Assembly (NCBI GenBank): GCA_038087875.1
Contig: CM075992.1
Coordinates: 7,752,001 to 7,816,000 of the forward strand
DNA length: 64,000 nt
Reading direction: 5' to 3'
Origin: Malacoraja senta
Lineage: Eukaryota
Made by a program: the position numbers and the translations under genes. The notes beneath the pieces are model-generated. The model had not been told where the DNA came from. It made no database searches and saw only the letters and a list, made by a program, of their open reading frames with translations. Positions 4,775 to 61,067 of the stretch are shown one piece after another (the first letter of the stretch is position 1; each line of letters begins with the position of its first letter).

Positions 4775-4976
4775 TGTGTAGGAAGGAATTGCAGATGCTG
4801 GTTTAAACCATAGATACAAAATGCTGGAGTAACTCAGTGGGACAGGCAGCATCTCTGGAAAGAAGTAATGGGTGACGTTTTGGGTCGAGGCTGAAGAAGG
4901 GTCTCAACCTGAAACATCACCCATTCCTTCTTTTCAGAGATGTTGCCTGTCCCACTGAGTTACTCCAGCATTTTGC
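4775..4976. mobile_element. Penelope-derived pLTR mini-element, inverted pair
   Basis: Inverted arms; perfect 13-bp TSD GTTTATAAACTAA (4762-4774 / 4977-4989). Confidence 0.85.
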
Positions 4977-5785
4977 GTTTATAAACTAACTTTAATATTT
5001 CTGACCAGGATCAATGGAATTTGTAAAGTTATCAGAATTTTGTTGCCTTCTCTCAGTGAATAAGGTTTTATTTATGAAATTGATATTTTCTCTTGATTAT
5101 TTGTTGATTATTGCAACTTTGGTGATGAAAGTTCCAATGGCACAAATGACAGGAGGATCCTGGGCATTTCAACAATTGTAAAAGATTTCATGGACAAATA
5201 ATTCAGAAAATGTTACTTTATATTAACTTCATAAGTTAAACATTTTCTACAGATCAGAGTATAATTTATAGATTCTAGAAGATTAGACAGGCGAACTGCA
5301 TGTTTTAACATTTTGGAATACTGTATGTTCTAGATGAACCTGAGTTACATTTCCGTAGTTATGTACTTTAAACTTAATTTATATTTTCAGACCCTGATGA
5401 CAATGAAGTATAACATCAGGCATGATAAAAAAAAGCAATTGCAATTGACATTAACCGCAGGTCATCTTGGAAAGTGGGTCAGGCTTCAGGGGAACAGAAA
5501 AAGCACAGCTGCAAAGTGCCAGCATTGGCAGAGGTCCAAGATAGCAGGTTTTGTGATGGCAGGGAACACATCAGAAGTGTCTTCCCAACGAAAACAAGTC
5601 AATCCTTCTCAGCCAGTCACATTTCCACAGTTAACTGATTTTGTTTTATATAGTTTTATTTATCATTAGATCAATAGACACCGAACAGATAATCAATAAT
5701 CAAAATGATGTTGTTTAAAAACAACCCCTGGCTTGTGTCAATGTCAGTAACAGTGATGCTAATAGTGGATGCAGTATCTAGTGAT

Positions 5786-6701
5786 CTTCTTCTTCTTGCG
5801 AATGAAACATAAACCAAAGGACTAGTTAGATCTCAAGCCGGGTGTTGAGCAGCCAGGTTGTTGTCTCTGTTGGCGTCAATGTCTGCCAGGCCCTGACAGA
5901 GCTCCATTTGGTGGGTGGTAGAGCGGGCACCCAGAGATGACATGGTTGGCTGTCTGTTGTTCTGCTCCGCATTCACAGGCTGGGCTCTGGCGCAGCCCCC
6001 ATCTCCACATGCTGGGATTGAAACGCCCATCTCTAGTACCAAGTCTGTTGAGCTTCACCCATGCTCCTCTGGGTAGGTCAGACCCTGGACAGCTTTTATC
6101 TGGTGAAGAGATGTAGCTGTGTAATGGAGATGAGGTTGCCTTCCACTCCTGTGACCACGTGGTGGCTATCCAGTGTGCGTTTGTCTCAGTTGGCCGGATG
6201 GATGCTAGGAGTTGTTTTCCATGTGGAGCAAAGGGGTGACGGGACTTCAGTCGGGGTGGCCTCTGCTCTCTGCTGATAGCCTGATGGAGGAGGTGATCTG
6301 GGTCTATGGCATGACAAGATAGTGCCAGAGTTGCTACTTGCCTTCGAATCCCTGCAGGCAAAATGCCTGCAAGTTTAGGGAGCTGCTCGACTGGAGTAAG
6401 TTGAAGGCACCCAGTGATGGTTCGCAAGGTGCTGTTCAGGCTCGTGTCTACCAGGCTAGTATGTCTACTTCTACTCCATACGGGCACGCAGTACTCAGCT
6501 GCGGCATACACAAGAGCTAAGGCAGATGTGTGAAGAGTTGATGGACTGGCTCCCCAACTTGTTCCTGCCAGGCGTCAGACGCTGCCGCTACGTGCCATGA
6601 CATTGTCGCAGAGATCAGCTAGGTGTTGACGAAATGTAAGCGACCTGTCCAGCTTTACGCCGAGGTCAGTGGGTGTTTGTTGAAAGTCCAAGACTTCCAT
6701 C
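5786..6701 (-). mobile_element. 5'-truncated Vingi/Ingi-like (I-group) LINE, RT C-terminus plus CCHC finger, degenerate
   Basis: Minus-strand translation LGVKLDRSLTFRQHL..*RLAGTSWGAS..LVYAAAEYCVPVW..CECGAEQQTANHVISGC; 3' end CATTCGC(AAG)n; TSD TATCTAGTGAT (5775-5785) / TATCTGGTGAT (6702-6712). Confidence 0.8.
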
Positions 6702-6751
6702 TATCTGGTGATGTTATTGGCAAATAGTTATATCATATAATGAATAATAAT

Positions 6752-12007: not shown

Positions 12008-12826
12008 TTGAATTGAATTCATTTTATTAGCCAAGTATGTATATATGCTTTGCTCGCAAGTAACAACACGATATACAGTAGACAATTAAAAATAAAACAT
12101 TATAATTTAAACATGTGAAGAATGACATAAAATACCAGAGCACAAGGAGGCTACAGATTTTTGGTTATTGAGTAGAGCTACTACTCGTGGAAAAAAGGTG
12201 TTTTTATGTCTGGCTGTGACAGCCCGGAGTCGCCTTCCAGAGGGAAGTGCTTCAAAGAGTTTGTGACCAGGGTGAGAGGGGTATTACCCGCCCGCTTCCT
12301 GGCCCTTGCTGTGTACAGTTCGTCGATGGGGGGAAGGTTGCAGCCAATTTCGGATGATAGAACAATTCGCTGCAGCCTCCAGATGTCGTGCTTGGTGGCT
12401 GAGCCAAACCAGACCATGATGGAGAAGGTGAGGACAGACTCTATGATGGCAGTATAAAACTGGACCATCATTGTCTGTGGCAGATTGAGTTTTCTCCGCT
12501 GCCGCAGGAAGTACATCCTCTGTTGGGCCTTTTTGACTGTGGAGTCGATGGTGGCCTCCCATTTAAGGTCCTTGGAAATGATGGTTCTAAGGAACTTAAA
12601 TGACTCCACAGATGTGACTGTGGTGTTGGTGATGATGAGTTGGGGGAGGGGAGGGGGAGCTCTCCTAAAGTCTACAATCAATTCCACTGTCTTAAGAGCT
12701 CCAGGTTGTTGCAATGGCACCAGGACGCCAGCAGTGTCACTTCCTGTCTGTAGGCAGATTCCTCCCCATCCTGGATCTGTCCAATCAGGGTTGTGTCATC
12801 CGCAAACTTGAGAAGCTTGACAGACA
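12008..12826 (-). mobile_element. Rex1/Babar-type LINE, 5'-truncated
   Basis: ORF 12181-12720: KTVELIVDFRR..VESFKFL..KKAQQRMYFLR..FYTAIIESVLTFSIMVWFG. Confidence 0.85.
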
Positions 12827-12842
12827 GCTTCACTATGTTAGT

Positions 12843-12896
12843 GCAGTGGGAGATTGCAACCTACACGTGGTCCACCCTGTTTCGACTAATGCAATC
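12843..12896 (+). ncRNA. HDV-like ribozyme with partly mutated P1
   Basis: GCAGTGG-GA-GATTGCA-ACC-TACACGT-GGT-CCACCCT-G-TTTCGA-CTAA-TGCAATC; P2 and P3 intact, two P1 mismatches. Confidence 0.7.
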
Positions 12897-12986
12897 AACC
12901 CGACGTGCACAAACAAATAGATATCATTTTTCATGCCACTTGATCTACAACTTTAGGCTGTGCACGCCATATGCAAGAAGAAGAAG
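12843..12986 (+). mobile_element. Short ribozyme-headed retroposon, family A, copy 1
   Basis: Perfect 11-bp TSD ACTATGTTAGT (12832-12842 / 12987-12997); (GAA)n tail; homologous to 24634-24776. Confidence 0.9.
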
Positions 12987-13034
12987 ACTATGTTAGTTTC
13001 TGTATAATAATATGAAGAACTATTGATAAGAACT

Positions 13035-15430: not shown

Positions 15431-15670
15431 GCACTTGTTACATGTATTCAGAGTTTTAGTGTTCTATACACTGAATTCTAGTTATCATACCTAATTTTTC
15501 TTTAGTGGACAGATTTACACCATTACTAGATGGAATGGAAAGCATTCTAACTTCCATGGCATAATTTAACTTTACAACATAGGAAGCTACCATTTAGCTT
15601 ATTGTGACAATGCACCAAAAAAAAAGACCTCCTAGTCTAATCTCACAGACATTGATTGTGTTAGCATCAT

Positions 15671-15903
15671 GTGTAGGAAAGAACTGCAGATGCTGGTTTA
15701 AATCGAAGGTAGACACAAAATGCTGCAGTAACTCAGCGGGACAGGCAGCATCTCTGGAGAGAAGGAATGGATGACGTTTCGGGTCAGGTCCGTTCTTCAG
15801 ACTTCTTCTGAAGAAGAAGGATCTCGACCCAAAACGTCACCCATCCCTTCTCTCCAGAGATGCTGCCTGTCTTGCTGAGTCACTCCAGCATTTTGTGTCT
15901 ACC
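15671..15903. mobile_element. Penelope-derived pLTR mini-element, inverted pair
   Basis: Inverted arms; perfect 15-bp TSD TTGTGTTAGCATCAT (15656-15670 / 15904-15918). Confidence 0.9.
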
Positions 15904-16500
15904 TTGTGTTAGCATCATCTTTAAACAAATGTCAAACACACAGATTCCAAACGTACATTTTAAGACTTCAGCCTTTTTTTTCCAGTGGGAAATCAACGAG
16001 GGGAAAAATATATTTTACATTAACAGCATAAGACATGTGAACAGTCTATTCCCAACGCCAATGCAATTTGCAGGATCATTACTATTAAGTCTGCATTTCC
16101 ATTTCTACAATCCCCTTGTCCACTTTGGACTCTGCATACAGAATCATTCATAATCTCAAGAGTTGAAGAAAGTTGAAAGGGTTCTGAGTATTTTCATAGC
16201 TTTTACGGAATGTGCTCTGAAATAAAACAATGTTTATTGCTACAGAAAATCCAATCTAAGAAACTCAAATTGTTGAGATAATTCTCAATATAACAATAGT
16301 ATTTAATATTAAAAATAATCAAGCAACTTAAATTAAATTCTGAATTAAGAGGCTTAGCAATGAGGTCACATAGCTACTAACAGTTTATTGTGATTTACTA
16401 GTGTTGTTAGGGAAGGGATTGTCTACATAGGTAGAGGGTGTGACTACTAGATAATGACCCCCATGGTTGGTTAATAAATCTGAGTGCATGAAATTAATTG

Positions 16501-16948: not shown

Positions 16949-17245
16949 GGCACGGTGGCGCAGCGGTTGAGTTGCTGCCTGACAGCAAATGCAGTGCCGG
17001 AGACCCGGGTTCGATCCCGACTATGGGTGCTGTCTGTACGGAGTTTGTACGTTCTCCCCGTGACATGCGTGGGTTTTCTCCGAGATCTTCGGTTTCCTCC
17101 CACACTCCACAAATGTACAAGTTTGTAGGTTAATTGGCTTGGTAAATGTAAAAATTGGCCCTAGTAGGTGTAGGATAGTGTTAATGTGCAGGGATCACTG
17201 GTGGGCCAAAGGGCCTGCTTCTGCTTGATATCTCTAAACTAAACT
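16949..17245 (+). mobile_element. tRNA-derived V-SINE (HE1-like)
   Basis: A box TGGCGCAGCGG, B box GGTTCGATCCC, V-core, TCTCTAAACTAAAC tail. Confidence 0.9.
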
Positions 17246-18175: not shown

Positions 18176-18620
18176 GTACGGTGGCGCAACGGTAGAGTTG
18201 CGGCCTTACAGCGCCAGAGAACCGGGTTCGATCCTGATTATGGGTGCTGTCTGTATGGAGTTTGCACGTTCTCCACCTGACCGACGTGGATTTTATCCGG
18301 GTCCTCCAGTTTCCTCCCACACTCCAAAGACCTACAGGTTTGTAGGCTAATTGGCTTGGTAAAATTGTAAATTGTCCCTAGTGTGTAGGATAGTGTTAGT
18401 CATAGAGTTAGAGAGTCATACAGTGTGGAAACAGGCCTTTCGGCCCAACTTGCACACTGGCTAACATGTCCCAGCTACACTTGTCCCTCCTGCCCGCGTT
18501 TGGCCCATATCCCTCCAAACCTGTCCTATCCATGTATCCAAGTTAGTATGCGCGGATAGATGGTTGGCACGCTCGGTGAGTTAAGGGCCTCTTTCTTCTT
18601 CTATGTATCTCTAAACTAAA
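18176..18620 (+). mobile_element. V-SINE interrupted by an inverted CR1/SINE 3'-end fragment (~18398-18540)
   Basis: A/B boxes, V-core and TCTCTAAACTAAAC tail; internal GGAAACAGGCCTTTCGGCCC fragment. Confidence 0.8.
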
Positions 18621-19474: not shown

Positions 19475-20606
19475 GGTAGACAAAAAGCTGGAGAAACTCA
19501 GCGGGTGAAGCAGCATCTATGGAGCGAAGGAATGGGTAACGTTTCGGGTCGAGACCTTTCTTCAGATTGACGCGGGCGGGGGTGGGAGGGACGGGGGGCG
19601 GGAAGACTAAAGGAAGATGCGGAGACAGTGGGCTGTGGGAGAGCTGGGAAGGCGAGGGGATGGAGGGAGCAAGCAAGGACTACCTGAAATTGGAGAAGTC
19701 AATGTTCATACCGCTACCCAAGCGAAATATGAGGTGCTGCTCCTCCAATTTGCGGTGGGACTCACTCTGGCCATGGAGGAGGCCCAGGACAGAAAGGTCA
19801 GATTCGGAATGGGAGGGGGAGTTGAAGTGCTGAGCCACAGGGAGATCAGGTTGGTTAATGCGAACCAAGCGGAGATGTTGGGCGAAGCGTTCGGCAAGCC
19901 TGCGCTTGGTCTCACCGATGTGGAGCAGTTGACACCTAGAACAGCGGGTGTAATAGATGAGGTTGGAGGAGGTGCCTCACCTGGAAAGACTGCTTGGGTC
20001 CTTGGATGGAGTCGAGGATGGAGGTAAAGTGACAAGTGTAGCATTTCCTGCGGTTGCAAGGGAAAGTACCAGGGGAGGGGGTGTATTGGGTGGGAAGGGA
20101 CGAATTGACCAAGGAGTTGAAGAGGGAGCGGTCTCTGCGGAAAGCTGAAAGGGGAGGAGATGGGAAGATATGGCCAGTGGTGGGATCCCGTTGGAAGTGG
20201 CGAAAAGGAGTATCTGTTGTATGTGATGGCTAGTAGGGTGGAAGGTGAGGACAGGGGGGACTCTGTCCTTGTTACGAGTGGGGGGATGGGGAAAGAGAGC
20301 GGAGCTACGGGATATAGAGGAGATCCTGGTGAGAGCCTTATCTATAGTCGAAGAGGGGAACCCCAGTTCCCTAAAGACTGAGGACATCTCCGATGCCCTG
20401 GTTTGGTACACCTCATCCTGGGTGCAAATTCGGCATAGACAGAGGAATTGGGTGTAGGGGATAGAGTCCTTACAGGAAGCAGGGTGGGAAAAAGTGTAGT
20501 CCAGATAGCCATGGGTCAGTAGGTTTGTGTAGATGTCGGTCAGTGGTCTGTTACCTGCGATGGAGATAGTGAGGTCTAGAAACGGTAGGGAGATGGATAG
20601 TGAGGT
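19475..20606 (-). mobile_element. Penelope-like element, 5'-truncated (RT C-terminus, GIY-YIG remnants, pLTR with hammerhead core 19538-19565)
   Basis: Minus ORFs KDRVPPVLTFHP and QPDLPVAQHFNSPSH..RKLEEQHLIFRLG; TSD TAATTAGGGCA (19464-19474) / TAATTAGAGCA (20607-20617). Confidence 0.9.
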
Positions 20607-23039: not shown

Positions 23040-24633
23040 AGGTGTAGCTCAGTTAGACGTTGCGGTTAGCATGGATCAGTTAGGCCAAAAGGCCTGTTTC
23101 CATGCTGTACAACTGCATGTGTCCATATGCAGAGTAATGTAACTTTCAAGTTGGCAGGCAGCCAACAATGGACCTACTTAATTGCTGGGAGTCCATGTCA
23201 TGAATCAGAGTCTTCTCAAGGGTTATTGTTTCATTGGGGTCATAAATCTGATCTAGGGACTGTTCCCAAAATATATGGTTACAGTAATATATGGAACATC
23301 AAAGCAATACCACTGCAGTTGGTAAAATCAAGATTCGTCACATTTATATAGTGGAGGCATTCTCACTAATGTCGAGAATACTAAAAATATCCGGTGCAAT
23401 CCTAAAATAACTAACATAAAATCACTGACAGGTCAGCCTGGCCTACAAACTGTAGCACCTCTACAGACCAATTCAAATGTATTTATGAGTGCATTTACAA
23501 AGCATTCTGCTAGAAACTGTCTGAACTGAAATCCCCACACAGACCAATATCAATTTATATTACTTCCTTTAGTGGTCAATGTAAGTAACCACATAGATTT
23601 GTAATATCCTATAGTGATGGATTACATAGTTTTTTTTTATTTTTCATTGTGATAGAACAGAACATGAGGAAGTCTCACACCAATACAAAATGGAAGAGAA
23701 TGGGGTTAGGAAGACTGCAGAGTTACTCACTGGATGACGAAGAGCTGTTTTATTATTAACAATTCTGCAATACAACACATGAAGAAAACTTATTTTTTAA
23801 ATAATGTGCAATTAATGTCATGAGATTCCATGTGATCACATCATATTTGTAAAAAGGTCCTATTGCACATGACAGCACCTTGCTGCTTTGCTAACTGGAT
23901 GGATCACTAAGGATTTCTTTATTTTCATTTTCTTAAAACAGCACATTTCGAAATAGTATAATCACAGATTGAATTTGGAATTAACTTCCTAATACTTCAA
24001 ATTTCATTATATTTTTTGGTCATTTCGACTCCAGCCTCCTTTGCATCCCTTTTCTCACAAGTGCGAGTCACCTGCCTTGAGCATTCAATAATTTTACTAC
24101 TGCTGAGTCCACTACTACTGCCACCACTGGAAAGAATCAGTATGGAGTAGATACCTAACGACAGGCCAACAAATACCATGGCTGCAAGCGAAGGACCAAG
24201 GATGGGTATCCTGTCGCACGATATTCACTTGGTGTCACTTCAATGTTTTTCCACCACCTATAAAGTTCTCTCCATTTGTATGTATGAAATTAGCTTAAAA
24301 ACCTTAATCAAATCCAGGCCAAATCAGGCCACTTGATTGCTACCTCATTCACCATCACAAATATTCATTTTCTCCACCACCAATAGTAATAATGCAAGAT
24401 GCAAAATTTGTGTAACTTTCAGTCTCGTTGATCCAGAACAGTGGCACAGCGGTAAAGTTGCTGCCTTACAGCGAATGCAGCGCCGGAGATTACGGGTGCT
24501 GCAGGTCCATCCCGACTACGGGCGCTGTCTGTACGGAGTTTGTACCTTCTCCCCATGACCTGCGTGGGTTTTCTCCCAGATCTTCGGTTTCCTCCCACAC
24601 TCCAAAGATGTACAGGTTTGTAGGTTAATTGGC

Positions 24634-24687
24634 GGGGTGGGAGATTGCAACCTTCACGTGGTCCACCCTGTTTCGACGAATGCAATC
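24634..24687 (+). ncRNA. Minimal HDV/CPEB3-like self-cleaving ribozyme (54 nt)
   Basis: P1 GGGGTGG/CCACCCT with G1-U wobble, P2 GATTGCA/TGCAATC, P3 ACC/GGT, L3 TTCACGT, P1.1 G24670, minimal P4 T-TTCG-A, J4/2 CGAA (putative catalytic C24677). Confidence 0.88.
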
Positions 24688-24776
24688 AACCTGGCGTGCA
24701 CAAACAGAAGATCAAACCGAACAAATTGTCCTACAACTTTAGGCTGTGCACGCCATACGCAAGAAGAAGAAGAAGA
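24634..24776 (+). mobile_element. Short ribozyme-headed retroposon, family A, copy 2
   Basis: Perfect 12-bp TSD AGGTTAATTGGC (24622-24633 / 24777-24788); ribozyme, then 11-bp hairpin, then CATACGC(AAG)n tail. Confidence 0.92.
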
Positions 24777-24955
24777 AGGTTAATTGGCTTGGTAAATGTA
24801 AAAATTGTTCCTAGTGGGTGTAGGATAGTGTTAATGTGCGAGTATCGCTGGTCGGCACGGACCCAGTGGGCCGAAAGGCTGTATCTCTAAACTAAACAAA
24901 GAAGGAATTTCATGTTTTCTCCCTGAAACAGCGAATTAAGAGAATACTTAATAAA

Positions 24956-44300: not shown

Positions 44301-44927
44301 ATCTGACCATGAGTCACAGCTTCTTGTCAACTATTAGTTGAGATTGAGACTGCTTTCTGTTAATTGAACATTGCCAAAATATTAAATATTTTTCTTTTAT
44401 AAATCATAACTTTCTATCACAACTGAACTAAACCCTGATAGCATTTGTGTACCTGCATCATAGAAAGATGAGTGGATTTGGCTGTTTAAAACCATGGGCT
44501 TTATAAACTGTATAATAGTAAGCAGAGTAAGTTTGATAAGTCATCTTCGGAAAAACATAAAGGCCTTGGAAAGGATGCGGAGATGGTTTACTAGATTGGT
44601 GTGTTGGATTCCAGTTACCTGAATACTAAAGAACTTAGAGCTGTTCTCCTAAAACAGAAAAGGTAGGGAAAATTCAATGGAGGTATTCAAGATCTTGAAT
44701 ATTCCACATAATTGACGACTGGCTTGAGGTGAAATAAGGATATCTAATTTTACACTTGGAGTTGTTCATGATTTGGAATGCAATGCCTAAAAATTCACTT
44801 TCAAAATTGTGTAACCATAGGAAAAGTCAGTAGAATGGAATGATTTTGATAGGTTTTTGCGTTAGATTCAGAATGAGCAAAATGGTCTCCTTTGGTGTTA
44901 TATTAGTTTGTTTCCAACTAAGTAGTT

Positions 44928-45015
44928 GGGGATCATGACAGAAGCCTCCTCGTGGCAATCCCCGGAAACGACGACACGATGCACTTTGTGACGCGTCGGG
45001 CGACCAATTCTGTCA
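44928..45015 (+). ncRNA. HDV-like self-cleaving ribozyme (88 nt)
   Basis: P1 GGGGATC/AATCCCC (6 of 7 paired), P2 TGACAGAA/TTCTGTCA, P3 GCC/GGC, L3 TCCTCGT, P1.1 CC/GG (44964-44965), P4 CGACG/CGTCG, J4/2 CCAA (putative catalytic C45004). Confidence 0.88.
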
Positions 45016-45077
45016 ATATGTTGGACAACAACGGAAGCCAACAGCGAGCTATGCGTCGTCTGACACGCGAGTGATCG
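44928..45077 (+). mobile_element. Short ribozyme-headed retroposon, family B (150 bp)
   Basis: CpG-rich insert between perfect 12-bp TSDs AACTAAGTAGTT (44916-44927 / 45078-45089). Confidence 0.88.
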
Positions 45078-45461
45078 AACTAAGTAGTTAGTAACTACGA
45101 CTGTATTTTCACTTGTATCAATTCACTTGGGGTTTATTCAATTCTAATTTTCAAAAAACTTTTCCCTGCAACTACAAATACTTAAAAGATTTATGCGGCA
45201 AAAATTCTAGTGTGGTCACAATAGAGATCTTAGAAGCAAGGGCTTTCCTACAAAGAGAAGGAAGTTGAAAGGAGTGTTAATCTGTACCACTTTTGCACCT
45301 TTTCAGGAGATAAGTTGCAGAATGATTTTAGTATAAATCTGAAAGCAAGTTACTCGATTCCCTGGTGAATGAATATTGCATGGGAAGAGAGGAATAGTTA
45401 GAACAAGAACTGAGAAAGAAAGAATGTATTATGAAATCAAGATATTAGAATGACATGCCAA

Positions 45462-48686: not shown

Positions 48687-48941
48687 AACTCCCCCTCCCA
48701 TTCCAAATCCAACCTTTCTGTCCTGCCTCCTCCATGGTCAGAGTGAGGCCCACCGTAAATTGGAGGAGCAGCACCTCATATTTCGCTTGGGTAGTTTACA
48801 CCCCAGCGGTATGAACACTGACCTCCAATTTTAGGTAGTCCCTGCTTTCTCCTTCTTTTCCCTTCCCACTCTCCCACAGCCCACTGTCTCCGCCTCTTCC
48901 TTTCTTCTTCCCGCCCCCCCCCCCCCCACTCCCACATCTGT

Positions 48942-48969
48942 CTGAAGAAGGGTCTCGACCCGAAACGTC
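48942..48969 (+). ncRNA. Minimal type I hammerhead ribozyme core in a Penelope pLTR
   Basis: CTGAAGA-A-GGGT-CTCG-ACCC-GAA-ACGT-C: CUGANGA box, stem II, GAAA, palindromic ACGU stem III, GUC cleavage triplet. Confidence 0.8.
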
Positions 48970-49370
48970 GCCTATTTCCTTCGTTCCATAGATGCTGCCT
49001 CACCTGCTGAGTTTCTCCAGCATTTTTGTCTACCTCGGAGAACATGGATGTCACTTACAATACTTGCTATACTACCCATCCCGAATTATCCCTAAATTGA
49101 GAATTCAGTTAAGTTTTCCTCCACTTGCATTTAAACCAGACCTATTCAGGGCAGTAGATTTCCTTTCCCTAAGGTCATTAATGAAGTAGTGGTGTTTTTA
49201 TGACAATACGGTGCTTACTGGATAGAGATTAGCATATTTTTATAAATGTATTTAATTACCTCAATTTAAATCCTCCAGTTGCCATGCGATGGGCCAGAAG
49301 TCTGCCTATATGCAGTAACTGGCATGCTATAACTCTTGATATTTGTCCAATGATTTAACTAGCATTCTAA

Positions 49371-49540
49371 GTTTTCAAGAAGGAACAGCAGATGCTGGAA
49401 AATCGAAGGTAGACAAAAATGCTGGAGAAACTCAGCGGGTGAGGCAGCATCTATGGAGCGAAGGAAATAGGCAACGTTTCGGGCTGAAACCTTTCTTCAG
49501 ACATGTAGGGTGGGGGGGGGGTGCGGGAAGAGGAAAAGAC
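49371..49540 (-). mobile_element. Penelope pLTR with hammerhead core (49473-49500)
   Basis: Minus strand CTGAAGAAAGGTTTCAGCCCGAAACGTT followed by pLTR consensus. Confidence 0.8.
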
Positions 49541-51834: not shown

Positions 51835-52277
51835 TTTAGTTTAGTTTAGAAAGACCCTTCGGCCCACCGAATCCGCACCGGCCAGCGATCCGCACACATT
51901 AACGCTACCTTACACACATTAGGGACAATTTACACTTATAACAAGCCAATTAACCTACAAACCTGAACGTCTTTGGAATGTGGGAGGAAACCGAAGATCT
52001 CCCTAGGGCTAGCGGAATCACGGGGTATGGGGAGAAGACAGGCACGGGTTACTGATTGTGAATGATCAGCCATGATCACAATGAATGGTGGTGCTGGCTC
52101 GAAGGGCCAAATGGCCTCTTCCTGCACCTATTTTCTATGTTTCTATCTCGGAGAAAACCCACGCAGGTCATGGGGAGAATGTACAAACTCCGTACAGACG
52201 GCACCCGTAGTCGGGATTGAACCTGGGTCTCCAGCGCCGCAAGCGCTGTAAGGCAGCAACTCGACCGCTGCGCCACC
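51835..52277 (-). mobile_element. V-SINE interrupted by a plus-strand CR1 3' end (~52005-52146)
   Basis: Minus-strand A/B boxes and V-core; insert ends with TTTTCTATGTTTCT. Confidence 0.85.
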
Positions 52278-58905: not shown

Positions 58906-59142
58906 TTTAGTTTAGTGTAGATACAGAGCGGAAACAGCCCCTTCGGCCCACCGAGTCAATGCCAACCAGTGATCACCCCACACACTGGCACTATCCTACA
59001 CACTAGATTATTTGTTTTAATTTTTTTTTTTCCAAAGCCAATTAACTTACAAACCTGCAAATATTTGGAGTGTGGGAGGAAACCGGAGCTTCCAGAAAAA
59101 ACACACGCGGTCAAGGGGAGAACTTACAAGTTCTGTACAGAC
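58906..59142 (-). mobile_element. V-SINE 3' portion
   Basis: TTTGGAGTGTGGGAGGAAACCGGAG..GGGAGAAC..TGTACAGAC; lacks the tRNA head. Confidence 0.8.
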
Positions 59143-59677: not shown

Positions 59678-60162
59678 GGTAGACAAAAATGCTGGAGAAA
59701 CTCAGCGGGTGCGGCAGCATCTATGGAGCGAAGGAAATAGGCAACGCTTCGGGCCGAAACCCTTCTTCAGACTGATGCCGGGTGGGAGGGGCGGGAAGAA
59801 GAAAGGAAGAGGAGGAGCCAGAGGGCTGAGGGAGCGCTGAGAAGGGGAGGAGACAGCAAGGGCTACCGGAAATTGGAGAAGTCAATGTTCAGGCCACTGG
59901 GATGCAGACTGCCCAAGCGCAATATGAGGTGCTGCTCATCCAATTTCCGGTAGTGCTCACTCTGGCAATGGAGGAGGCCCAGGACAGAAAGGTGCGGAAT
60001 GGGAGGGGGAATTGAAGTTCGGAATGGGAGGGGGAGTTGACGTTCAGAATGGGAGGGGGAGTTGAAGTTCGGAATGGGAGGGGGAGTTGAAGTTCGGAAT
60101 GGGAGGGGGAGTTGAAGTTCGGAATGGGAGGGGGAGTTGAAGTTCGGAATGGGAGGGGGAGT
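59678..60162 (-). mobile_element. Penelope-like 3' end with pLTR
   Basis: Homologous to 19475-19830; hammerhead core has GAAA changed to GAAG. Confidence 0.85.
59995..60162 (+). repeat. 25-bp minisatellite, ~6.7 copies
   Basis: Unit CGGAATGGGAGGGGGAGTTGAAGTT starting at 59995, 60020, 60045, 60070, 60095, 60120 and 60145. Confidence 0.95.
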
Positions 60163-61067
60163 ATTCGTATTGTGGACTGAGGGGACTGATGGGAGACATT
60201 ATTGTGGACTGAGGGGCCTGTTCCAGTGGTGTCGTGTTTTACAATCTATGAAATATATTTCCTATTGCACCAAATGAAACTGTTGGAAATAATTATCTGA
60301 TCAATAAAAATCACTAAATATTTGTTTGCCAAATCATAGAAAGACCATGTCAATTTACAAATACCCCATGTTGATATTCAAAGAATCTCTACTTTGTACT
60401 ACATGTTTGTGGTTTATGGAGTTAATTAGTAATTTCAAAAGTATGAGATTTGTTTTGACTTCAAACTAGATAAGCACTTGAATTTCCAAATCATAGGAGG
60501 TTGTGGACTGGAAAATGCTATCAGTCTAAATGGCCAGTTGACCAACATGGGCATGACGTTCCAAAGGTTCTGTTTCCGTGCAGTGCAACCCTGCGACTCA
60601 GTAAATCTTTGACAAACCAGAATTTCAAATGGCCATGGACATTTTGTAAACTTCTAACACTAATGCAAACTTCAGTGAAGATGTTTTTAACACTGGTCAA
60701 TACTTCTACCACATATCCAGTTCCTGGGTTTCTGATCAATTGTAATTCTCCCATTCTGTCAAGCAGAGTCATTTCCTGATTGTTATCTGTATTGGACATG
60801 ATACTGCACTTATTGCTTCAGCGGCCTTTTTTAATTGGCAGGCAGATAATTGAATTACTGGAAGATAAGAATTTCACCAGCTGGAGAAAAAACAGAGAAA
60901 GAAAGCCCAGGATCACACGCATGTGAAAACATTTGGGTCATAGAATTTCTGCCAGGTGTTTTACTGCTGACTTTTTACAGGACCTGTTTATTGCTAACAT
61001 TATTTTTCTTCCTTTATTTCTGCACTATGCACCATTCCAGGAACACACACACACAGACACACACACC

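Follow-up and report, generated by a model that had tools for sequence, protein, structure and literature searches.

The 64-kb window, by which we mean the whole stretch of 64,000 nucleotides of DNA that was analysed, contains on its minus strand the 3′ end of a LINE and on its plus strand two copies (A1 and A2) of a short retroposon-like element that we call family A, together with one copy of a further short element, family B (Table 1). The LINE fragment comprises the reverse transcriptase (RT) thumb region, a C-terminal Cys/His motif, a 28-nt 3′ UTR and an (AAG)4 tail, and it aligns without a gap, from the RT thumb to the Cys/His motif, with residues 745–1008 of the homologue P0001 (E 1.7e-107). 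An earlier note on this DNA gave the ORF of the LINE as 5876–6511; the stop-to-stop frame is somewhat longer (5876–6574), and homology to intact relatives runs from 6691 to 5900 and crosses one in-frame stop codon at 6575–6577. Below about position 5900 the C-terminus shifts to other frames. Because of this in-frame stop and the change of frame near its end the 916-bp piece is a dead copy, truncated at its 5′ end. There is no second copy of it in the 64-kb window, and in itself the fragment is ordinary.

Table 1. Coordinates of the LINE fragment, the family A and family B elements and their parts in the window (TSD, target-site duplication).
Feature	Position	Strand	Basis or remark
5′-truncated, dead copy of a Vingi-type LINE	5786..6701	−	66% amino acid identity to P0001; RNase-H-less clade in the tree
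LINE TSD, 5′ copy (11 bp)	6702..6712	−	10/11 identical to 5775–5785
LINE TSD, 3′ copy (11 bp)	5775..5785	−	10/11 identical to 6702–6712
7-nt terminal motif and AAG tail of the LINE, the sole DNA common to LINE and family A	5786..5804	−	18/19 identical to A2 24754–24772
Family A copy A1, with older head (P1 5/7) and minority-type middle	12843..12986	+	exact 11-bp TSD 12832–12842 / 12987–12997
Predicted minimal (P4-less) HDV-like ribozyme of A1, 54 nt, two P1 mismatches	12843..12896	+	descriptor scans
Family A copy A2, majority type, inside a SINE	24634..24776	+	exact 12-bp TSD 24622–24633 / 24777–24788
Predicted minimal (P4-less) HDV-like ribozyme, 54 nt, head of A2	24634..24687	+	descriptor scans, pair counts
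20-codon remnant ORF of A2, ATG inside the 3′ end of the predicted ribozyme	24680..24742	+	first 16 aa resemble the N-termini of the closest full-length relatives of the LINE
Predicted 3′ stem-loop of A2, ending at the terminal motif	24692..24755	+	11-bp perfect arms 24692–24702 and 24745–24755
Family B, second element of 150 bp with a predicted ribozyme head	44928..45077	+	exact 12-bp TSD 44916–44927 / 45078–45089

The closest full-length homologues of the LINE are single ORFs of 989–1,039 amino acids on contigs of 3.2–3.6 kb, with 56–67% identity, and its nearest intact relatives have 61–67% protein identity. Four of these proteins (P0001, P0003, P0174 and P0004) combine an N-terminal APE endonuclease with an RT in one compact ORF, a part that the truncated window copy has lost, and endonuclease and RT are present and RNase H is absent in all eight members of the LINE's clade that were scanned. 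The LINE fragment itself gave no RNase H match. Nine of the ten longer, more distant outgroup matches carry RNase H, the tenth being matched only to profile position 888. In a maximum likelihood tree of 77 full-length proteins (hand-picked from about 530) and the fragment, computed from 517 columns from the RT onward, the fragment falls within the RNase-H-less clade with an SH-aLRT of 100 and the RNase-H-bearing relatives lie outside it; its neighbours are P0001, P0002, P0003 and P0174 (88.5), followed by P0004 and P0180 (98.5). Vingi is defined in PMC13708176 as a compact single ORF without RNase H that is sister to Ingi. Both the layout of its closest relatives and its position in the tree therefore agree with the earlier description of the LINE as Vingi-like, and we refer to it as Vingi-type, a name that rests on architecture and on a tree without named Vingi or Ingi references.

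The viral contigs searched held neither relatives of the LINE nor matches to family A. Prokaryote genomes yielded no LINE relatives with an alignment of close relatives as the query and, with a wider alignment, only distant, contaminating Vingi-clade contigs. Four LINE-related loci were found in metagenomes, none of the four with an intact 5′ end. Locus L017, considered at one stage as a LINE, was dropped as a bacterial nuclease-type gene by eye.

Family A is a non-coding, dispersed element with TSDs and a simple-repeat tail. Its coding capacity is limited to an ATG frame of 20 codons, and Rfam returned no tRNA, 5S or 7SL head, either at the gathering level across the window or at E ≤ 10 for A2. 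The SINE that hosts A2 (24441–24886), which we take to be V-SINE/HE1-like, has further copies near 16955–17206, 18181–18398, 51855–52276 and 58931–59142, and two other copies carry the target site of A2 in its empty form, at 17127 and 51945. A1 is inserted at the upstream edge of an RT-region fragment of another LINE (12367–12830, minus strand; weak tblastn match at 12645–12367, E 6e-7) that is presumably Rex1/Babar-like. Elsewhere in the window a very abundant short repeat family occurs in both orientations (1553–1750, 4788–4999, 15669–15919, 48903–49539 and others), also as near-perfect inverted pairs such as the arms 1554–1651 and 1653–1750; a tandem array of about seven copies of a 25-bp unit lies at 59967–60191, within a repeat also found near 19777; and the segment 8030–9300 is AT-rich and by eye unlike the retroposon fragments that surround it, possibly a DNA-transposon remnant. 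The repeats in the window appear to be of the kind found in cartilaginous fish.

Sequencing runs revealed how abundant family A is. At least half of 12 sampled family A words occur in 18 of the 23 runs listed, spanning nine organism codes and 12 studies (metatranscriptome rows with small word shares, n = 2, were left out). In four runs 5,939, 7,393, 10,233 and 628 contigs were placed on A1; as contigs, these data cannot show RNA ends or copy number, and their depth sums are not copy numbers. In the first three of these runs, which are of DNA type, long and unrelated flanks are carried by 164, 275 and 331 contigs, and the final GGG of the flanks lies directly before position 12846, at G1 of the predicted fold. 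Since these flanks are mutually unrelated and end at G1, many independent insertions start at the predicted cut site. Among the middles the A2 type predominates, and that of A1 accounts for about 0.1% of depth, about 1,000-fold below its flanks; as a minority form in contig depth, it was ruled out as a second major deletion type. Placed contigs that run on unlike family A amount to 0–1% in three runs and 6% in the fourth, X18, and among 24 of 384 loose-end rows there was no clear case of a continuation of family A into an ORF. Towards its 3′ end A2 is predicted to form a stem-loop of −21.5 kcal/mol (z −3.8; 0/300 mononucleotide shuffles), and the same hairpin is weaker in A1 (z −1.55).

The first 54 nt of A2 are predicted to form a complete HDV-like double pseudoknot. 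As modelled, all pairs form in P1 (7/7, the first being G-U), P2 (7/7) and P3 (3/3), P1.1 has 1 bp, J1/2 has 2 nt, and the 7-nt L3 is identical to the CPEB3 consensus loop in Rfam. At the place of P4 there are 6–7 nt with no predicted helix, and on this model the head fits the minimal HDV-like subtype, not the canonical one. The C at the first position of J4/2 is present in A1 and A2 and also in family B (4-nt J4/2) and in a Vingi-clade locus, L018 (3-nt J4/2), which are described below. HDV-like ribozymes constrain particular loop bases, and the descriptor used in our scans includes these constraints. The arrangement of its helices, the catalytic C and the cut at G1 were taken from the descriptions in PMC3185411 and 10.1101/2023.06.13.544163. 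In its strict form the descriptor matched A2 only in the window, with 0 matches in 40 Markov controls and 0/5,000 among shuffles of A2; in its relaxed form it matched A1, A2, family B and, among 19 loci, L018 alone, with 0 matches in 60 controls. A decoy-base control was uninformative, as the same loci were re-matched one base over. When the four heads (A1, A2, B and L018) are aligned, 94.7% of cells are paired versus 31–47% in slid controls and 10 of 19 pairs show two-sided changes, in a set of four sequences from three lineages from which the structure itself was derived. Rfam produced no ribozyme match for A2 at E ≤ 10, by a method that ignores pseudoknots, and nothing at the gathering level in the window; nested folding of whole family A copies, in which pseudoknots are likewise ignored, was no better than shuffles (z −0.43 and −0.04). 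An A>G change at 12874 (A1 numbering, 3′ strand of P1) makes up 28–76% of depth in four runs, and six X18 contigs hint at a T>C change at 12847 alongside it; the 12874 variant may be compensated at 12847, as a subfamily.

The L018 fold lies at positions 4–80 of that locus, at the 5′ end of a Vingi-clade ORF, and has the same 7-2-7-3-7-3-7 helix pattern as the family A head. The ORF is 77% identical to P0336, on a distant branch of the LINE's clade, and the locus, like L005–L008, is a eukaryotic contaminant of a prokaryote genome bin. In the L018 fold P1.1 is swapped (G-C/C-G), and only 20 of 38 core bases are shared with A2. Of the other 5′ ends, that of L001 is cut inside the ORF and that of L004 is degenerate, with no descriptor match. 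An HDV-like fold at LINE 5′ ends had been anticipated in the earlier note, and it appears for the Vingi clade on the one intact-looking end obtained (L018); the 5′ ends compared came from outside the subgroup of the 5786–6701 LINE.

Family B, of which the window holds one copy, also begins with a predicted HDV-like fold (44928–45014), this one with P4. It has sub-threshold Rfam matches to CPEB3 (E 0.0043), HDV-F-prausnitzii (E 0.61) and HDV (E 3.4), and its core is identical to the L018 head at 29 of 38 positions. The 3′ end resembles those of L007 and L008 (GACACG followed by a TGA/GAT-like repeat). Given these likenesses, family B probably goes back to a different branch of Vingi; the match of its peptide to group-2 N-termini is not significant, 143/1,000 shuffles reaching the score.

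As the earlier note had it, the LINE and both family A copies end in similar tails, found at 5789–5804 (minus strand) for the LINE, 12968–12983 for A1 and 24754–24769 for A2, and each of the three is flanked by a TSD of 11 or 12 bp. A pattern made for these tails has three matches in the window against 0.20 expected, a circular count since the pattern was built from the same sequences; the window has five runs of (AAG)3 or longer, three of which are those of the LINE, A1 and A2. The last 7 nt before the AAG repeat are identical to the LINE at six positions in A2 and at five in A1. Similarity stops upstream of this motif, again as noted earlier: in the next 30 nt A1 and A2 each match the LINE at 6/30 positions, the chance level, versus 27/30 between A1 and A2, and the score of the local alignment of family A to the last 200 nt of the LINE is reached by shuffles in 1439/2000 and 1671/2000 cases. 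Other Vingi-clade ends (L001, L003 and L008) have a similar CACG-type motif, then AAG or TGA repeats, and CACG, TACG or TTCG followed by a trinucleotide tail is recurrent in the Vingi-clade ends seen. With its recurrence in L001, L003 and L008, the motif singles out no partner for family A.

We do not class family A as a derivative of the 5786–6701 LINE family because the identity upstream of the motif is no better than that of shuffles. A simple internal deletion keeps the 3′ UTR of its parent, and with only 6/30 positions matching, this family is probably not the direct parent. The reading that we favour, and hold to be somewhat more probable than not, is that family A is an abundant element of about 143 nt, likely formed by internal deletion of a Vingi from the LINE's subgroup, with a sister family as the probable source, and likely copied by a Vingi RT. 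The earlier proposal that family A is a derivative or tail-sharing parasite of a Vingi-type LINE thus stands in part: Vingi architecture, the HDV-like head, the L018 fold and the A2 peptide speak for it, whereas the 3′ comparison speaks against the neighbouring LINE as parent.

Two peptide hints bear on the parent of family A, and they disagree. First, when the peptide of the A2 remnant ORF was compared with 75 N-termini, the top three were P0174, P0001 and P0003, with P0174 identical at 8 of 12 positions. The score was reached by 15/2,000 shuffles; 40/2,000 random peptides reach it against some protein, and among random peptides of the window 1/2,000 reaches it while matching best in the LINE subgroup. 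This hint is short, post hoc and drawn from one of three frames, and A1's own frame has no pointer to the LINE subgroup. Second, the 3′ frame of A1 ends LDLQL-stop and scores 12.0 on a group-2 PSSM versus −5.7 on that of the LINE subgroup, a group-2 score reached by one of 5,082 window peptides, namely itself.

The N-terminal hint would also suit a different history, in which the 5786–6701 LINE family is both parent and mobiliser, family A kept only its 5′ end and the last 7 nt with the tail, and a snap-back duplication, the source of the 11-bp hairpin, restored the rest of the 3′ half. We regard this history as unlikely, although several observations fit it: the three best-matching N-termini belong to sister sequences of the LINE, the terminal motif is identical to that of A2 at 6/7 positions versus 5/7 for L001 (by eye), the TSD lengths are alike, and, since the two arms of the hairpin are exact reverse complements, the 3′ arm need have no LINE origin. 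Against it stand the chance-level identity upstream of the motif, the stop-to-tail spacer of 28 nt in the LINE versus 18 nt in family A, an ORF that ends RLEI-stop in the LINE where the 3′ part of family A reads LQL-stop, and the lack of a comparable hairpin at the LINE 3′ end (z −0.81 for its last 70 nt). For the 5786–6701 family to mobilise family A, the last 7 nt and the tail would have to be nearly all that recognition requires.

The C-terminal hint would instead suit a tail-exchange chimera, with a head from the LINE subgroup and a 3′ part from a group-2 Vingi of the P0029/P0039 type, the real mobiliser; we think this quite improbable. The A1 3′ frame does fit group-2 C-termini, under a scheme whose leave-one-out assignment was right for 33/35 and 56/58 proteins, but the A1 middle is of the minority type, the PSSM score of the majority type is −0.5, and P0180, from the LINE's own clade, has a similar end, ELKL. 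Seven X18 contigs diverge from family A beyond about nt 100, with GPA in one of their frames (hand translation), and GP or GS occurs just before the endonuclease start in 13/20 group-2 versus 3/17 group-1 proteins; however, GP is also found near the N-termini of P0001, P0003 and P0174, and the X18 row was picked among the 24 of 384 rows. Tail exchange as such is described in PMC5786205. Finally, it is very improbable that the similar tails arose by convergence on a short motif and that family A relies on a ribozyme-bearing clade other than Vingi, RTE for example: PMC5786205 lists RTE, R2, R4, R1, LOA and Ingi with 5′ ribozymes and has RTE yielding bipartite derivatives, and LINE and family A share only 7 non-repeat bases, but the Vingi head of L018 has identical helix lengths, both peptide hints point to Vingi-clade proteins, and the motif with its trinucleotide tail recurs in Vingi-clade ends, the ends that this comparison covered.

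For family A as the likely offspring of a sister Vingi family, what is observed is the architecture, the TSDs, the tails, the many independent insertions and a 5′ end fixed at G1 of the fold. From there one may picture the following cycle. A family A copy would be transcribed by host read-through or from an internal promoter, and the 54-nt ribozyme would cut just before G1 to give a precise 5′ end. A Vingi endonuclease/RT acting in trans would then bind the 3′ stem-loop, the terminal motif and the AAG tail; it would next nick the target and start reverse transcription there, with a duplication of 11–12 bp as the result. We infer the release by self-cleavage and the target-primed reverse transcription in trans from what is described for L1Tc/NARTc and R2/SIDE (PMC3185411, PMC4035085, PMC6765202), and recognition of the stem-loop from the stringent LINE/SINE pairs described in PMC3747384. 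It is possible, if a little short of probable, that an active, P4-less HDV-like ribozyme of 54 nt, as predicted, heads a Vingi-dependent retroposon with thousands of copies in at least nine related animal genomes.

PMC5786205 raises the question why such derivatives are made by RTE, Ingi, Vingi and R2 only. If Vingi-clade elements begin with a ribozyme, this would agree with the view that derivatives can subsist on read-through transcripts by means of self-cleavage. Were the family A ribozyme active as just described then, taken with family B and L018, 5′ self-cleavage would be general among Vingi and there would be many potential cut sites in host transcripts. At about 143 nt, with ribozyme, stem-loop, 7-nt motif and AAG tail, family A would be a very small natural template from which one could work out the minimal cis signals of Vingi, a clade now in use as a gene-insertion tool (PMC13708176), and with its thousands of copies nature would already have provided a mutational scan of a minimal HDV-like fold. 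Our literature search found no description of family A or of a Vingi ribozyme; Repbase, Dfam and supplements were outside its reach and, as the supplements of PMC5786205 list SINE sequences, the family may already be catalogued.

Among known systems, the Vingi clade and the internally deleted derivatives of Vingi-1_EE (Kojima et al. 2011, as summarised in PMC5786205, PMC4494074 and PMC13708176) come closest when LINE and family A are set beside these descriptions, for both have a compact endonuclease and RT ORF without RNase H and short, non-autonomous derivatives made of 5′ and 3′ parts. Unlike those derivatives, family A has a 3′ UTR with no match to the neighbouring LINE, and Vingi is absent from the six clades listed with a 5′ ribozyme in section 23 of PMC5786205. 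The NARTc, RIME and SIDER elements of trypanosomatids, with their Pr77 HDV-like ribozyme, resemble family A as described in PMC3185411 and PMC4035085 in being short, non-coding Ingi-group derivatives whose position +1 begins an HDV-like fold with a 3-bp P3 and a P1.1 of 1–2 bp. However, Pr77 has 77 nt and a P4, whereas the head of family A has 54 nt and none, the element ends in (AAG)n, and its ribozyme is a prediction. The drz-Mtgn-1 and theta ribozymes (10.1101/2023.06.13.544163) share with the predicted family A head the absence of P4, the C that comes first in J4/2, the G1 cut site and a short J1/2, but they are described there from metagenomes and from gut phages, next to tRNAs, in contrast to a head on a high-copy retroposon in a large eukaryotic genome. 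The R2 SIDEs described in PMC3414825 and PMC6765202 are ribozyme-headed, internally deleted parasites that use a LINE protein in trans, as we propose for family A, although R2 is rDNA-specific and has a restriction-like endonuclease, whereas family A is dispersed and has TSDs of 11–12 bp. Bipartite Vingi derivatives and ribozyme-headed LINE parasites are already known, and the interest of family A lies in its minimal ribozyme and in the question of its partner.
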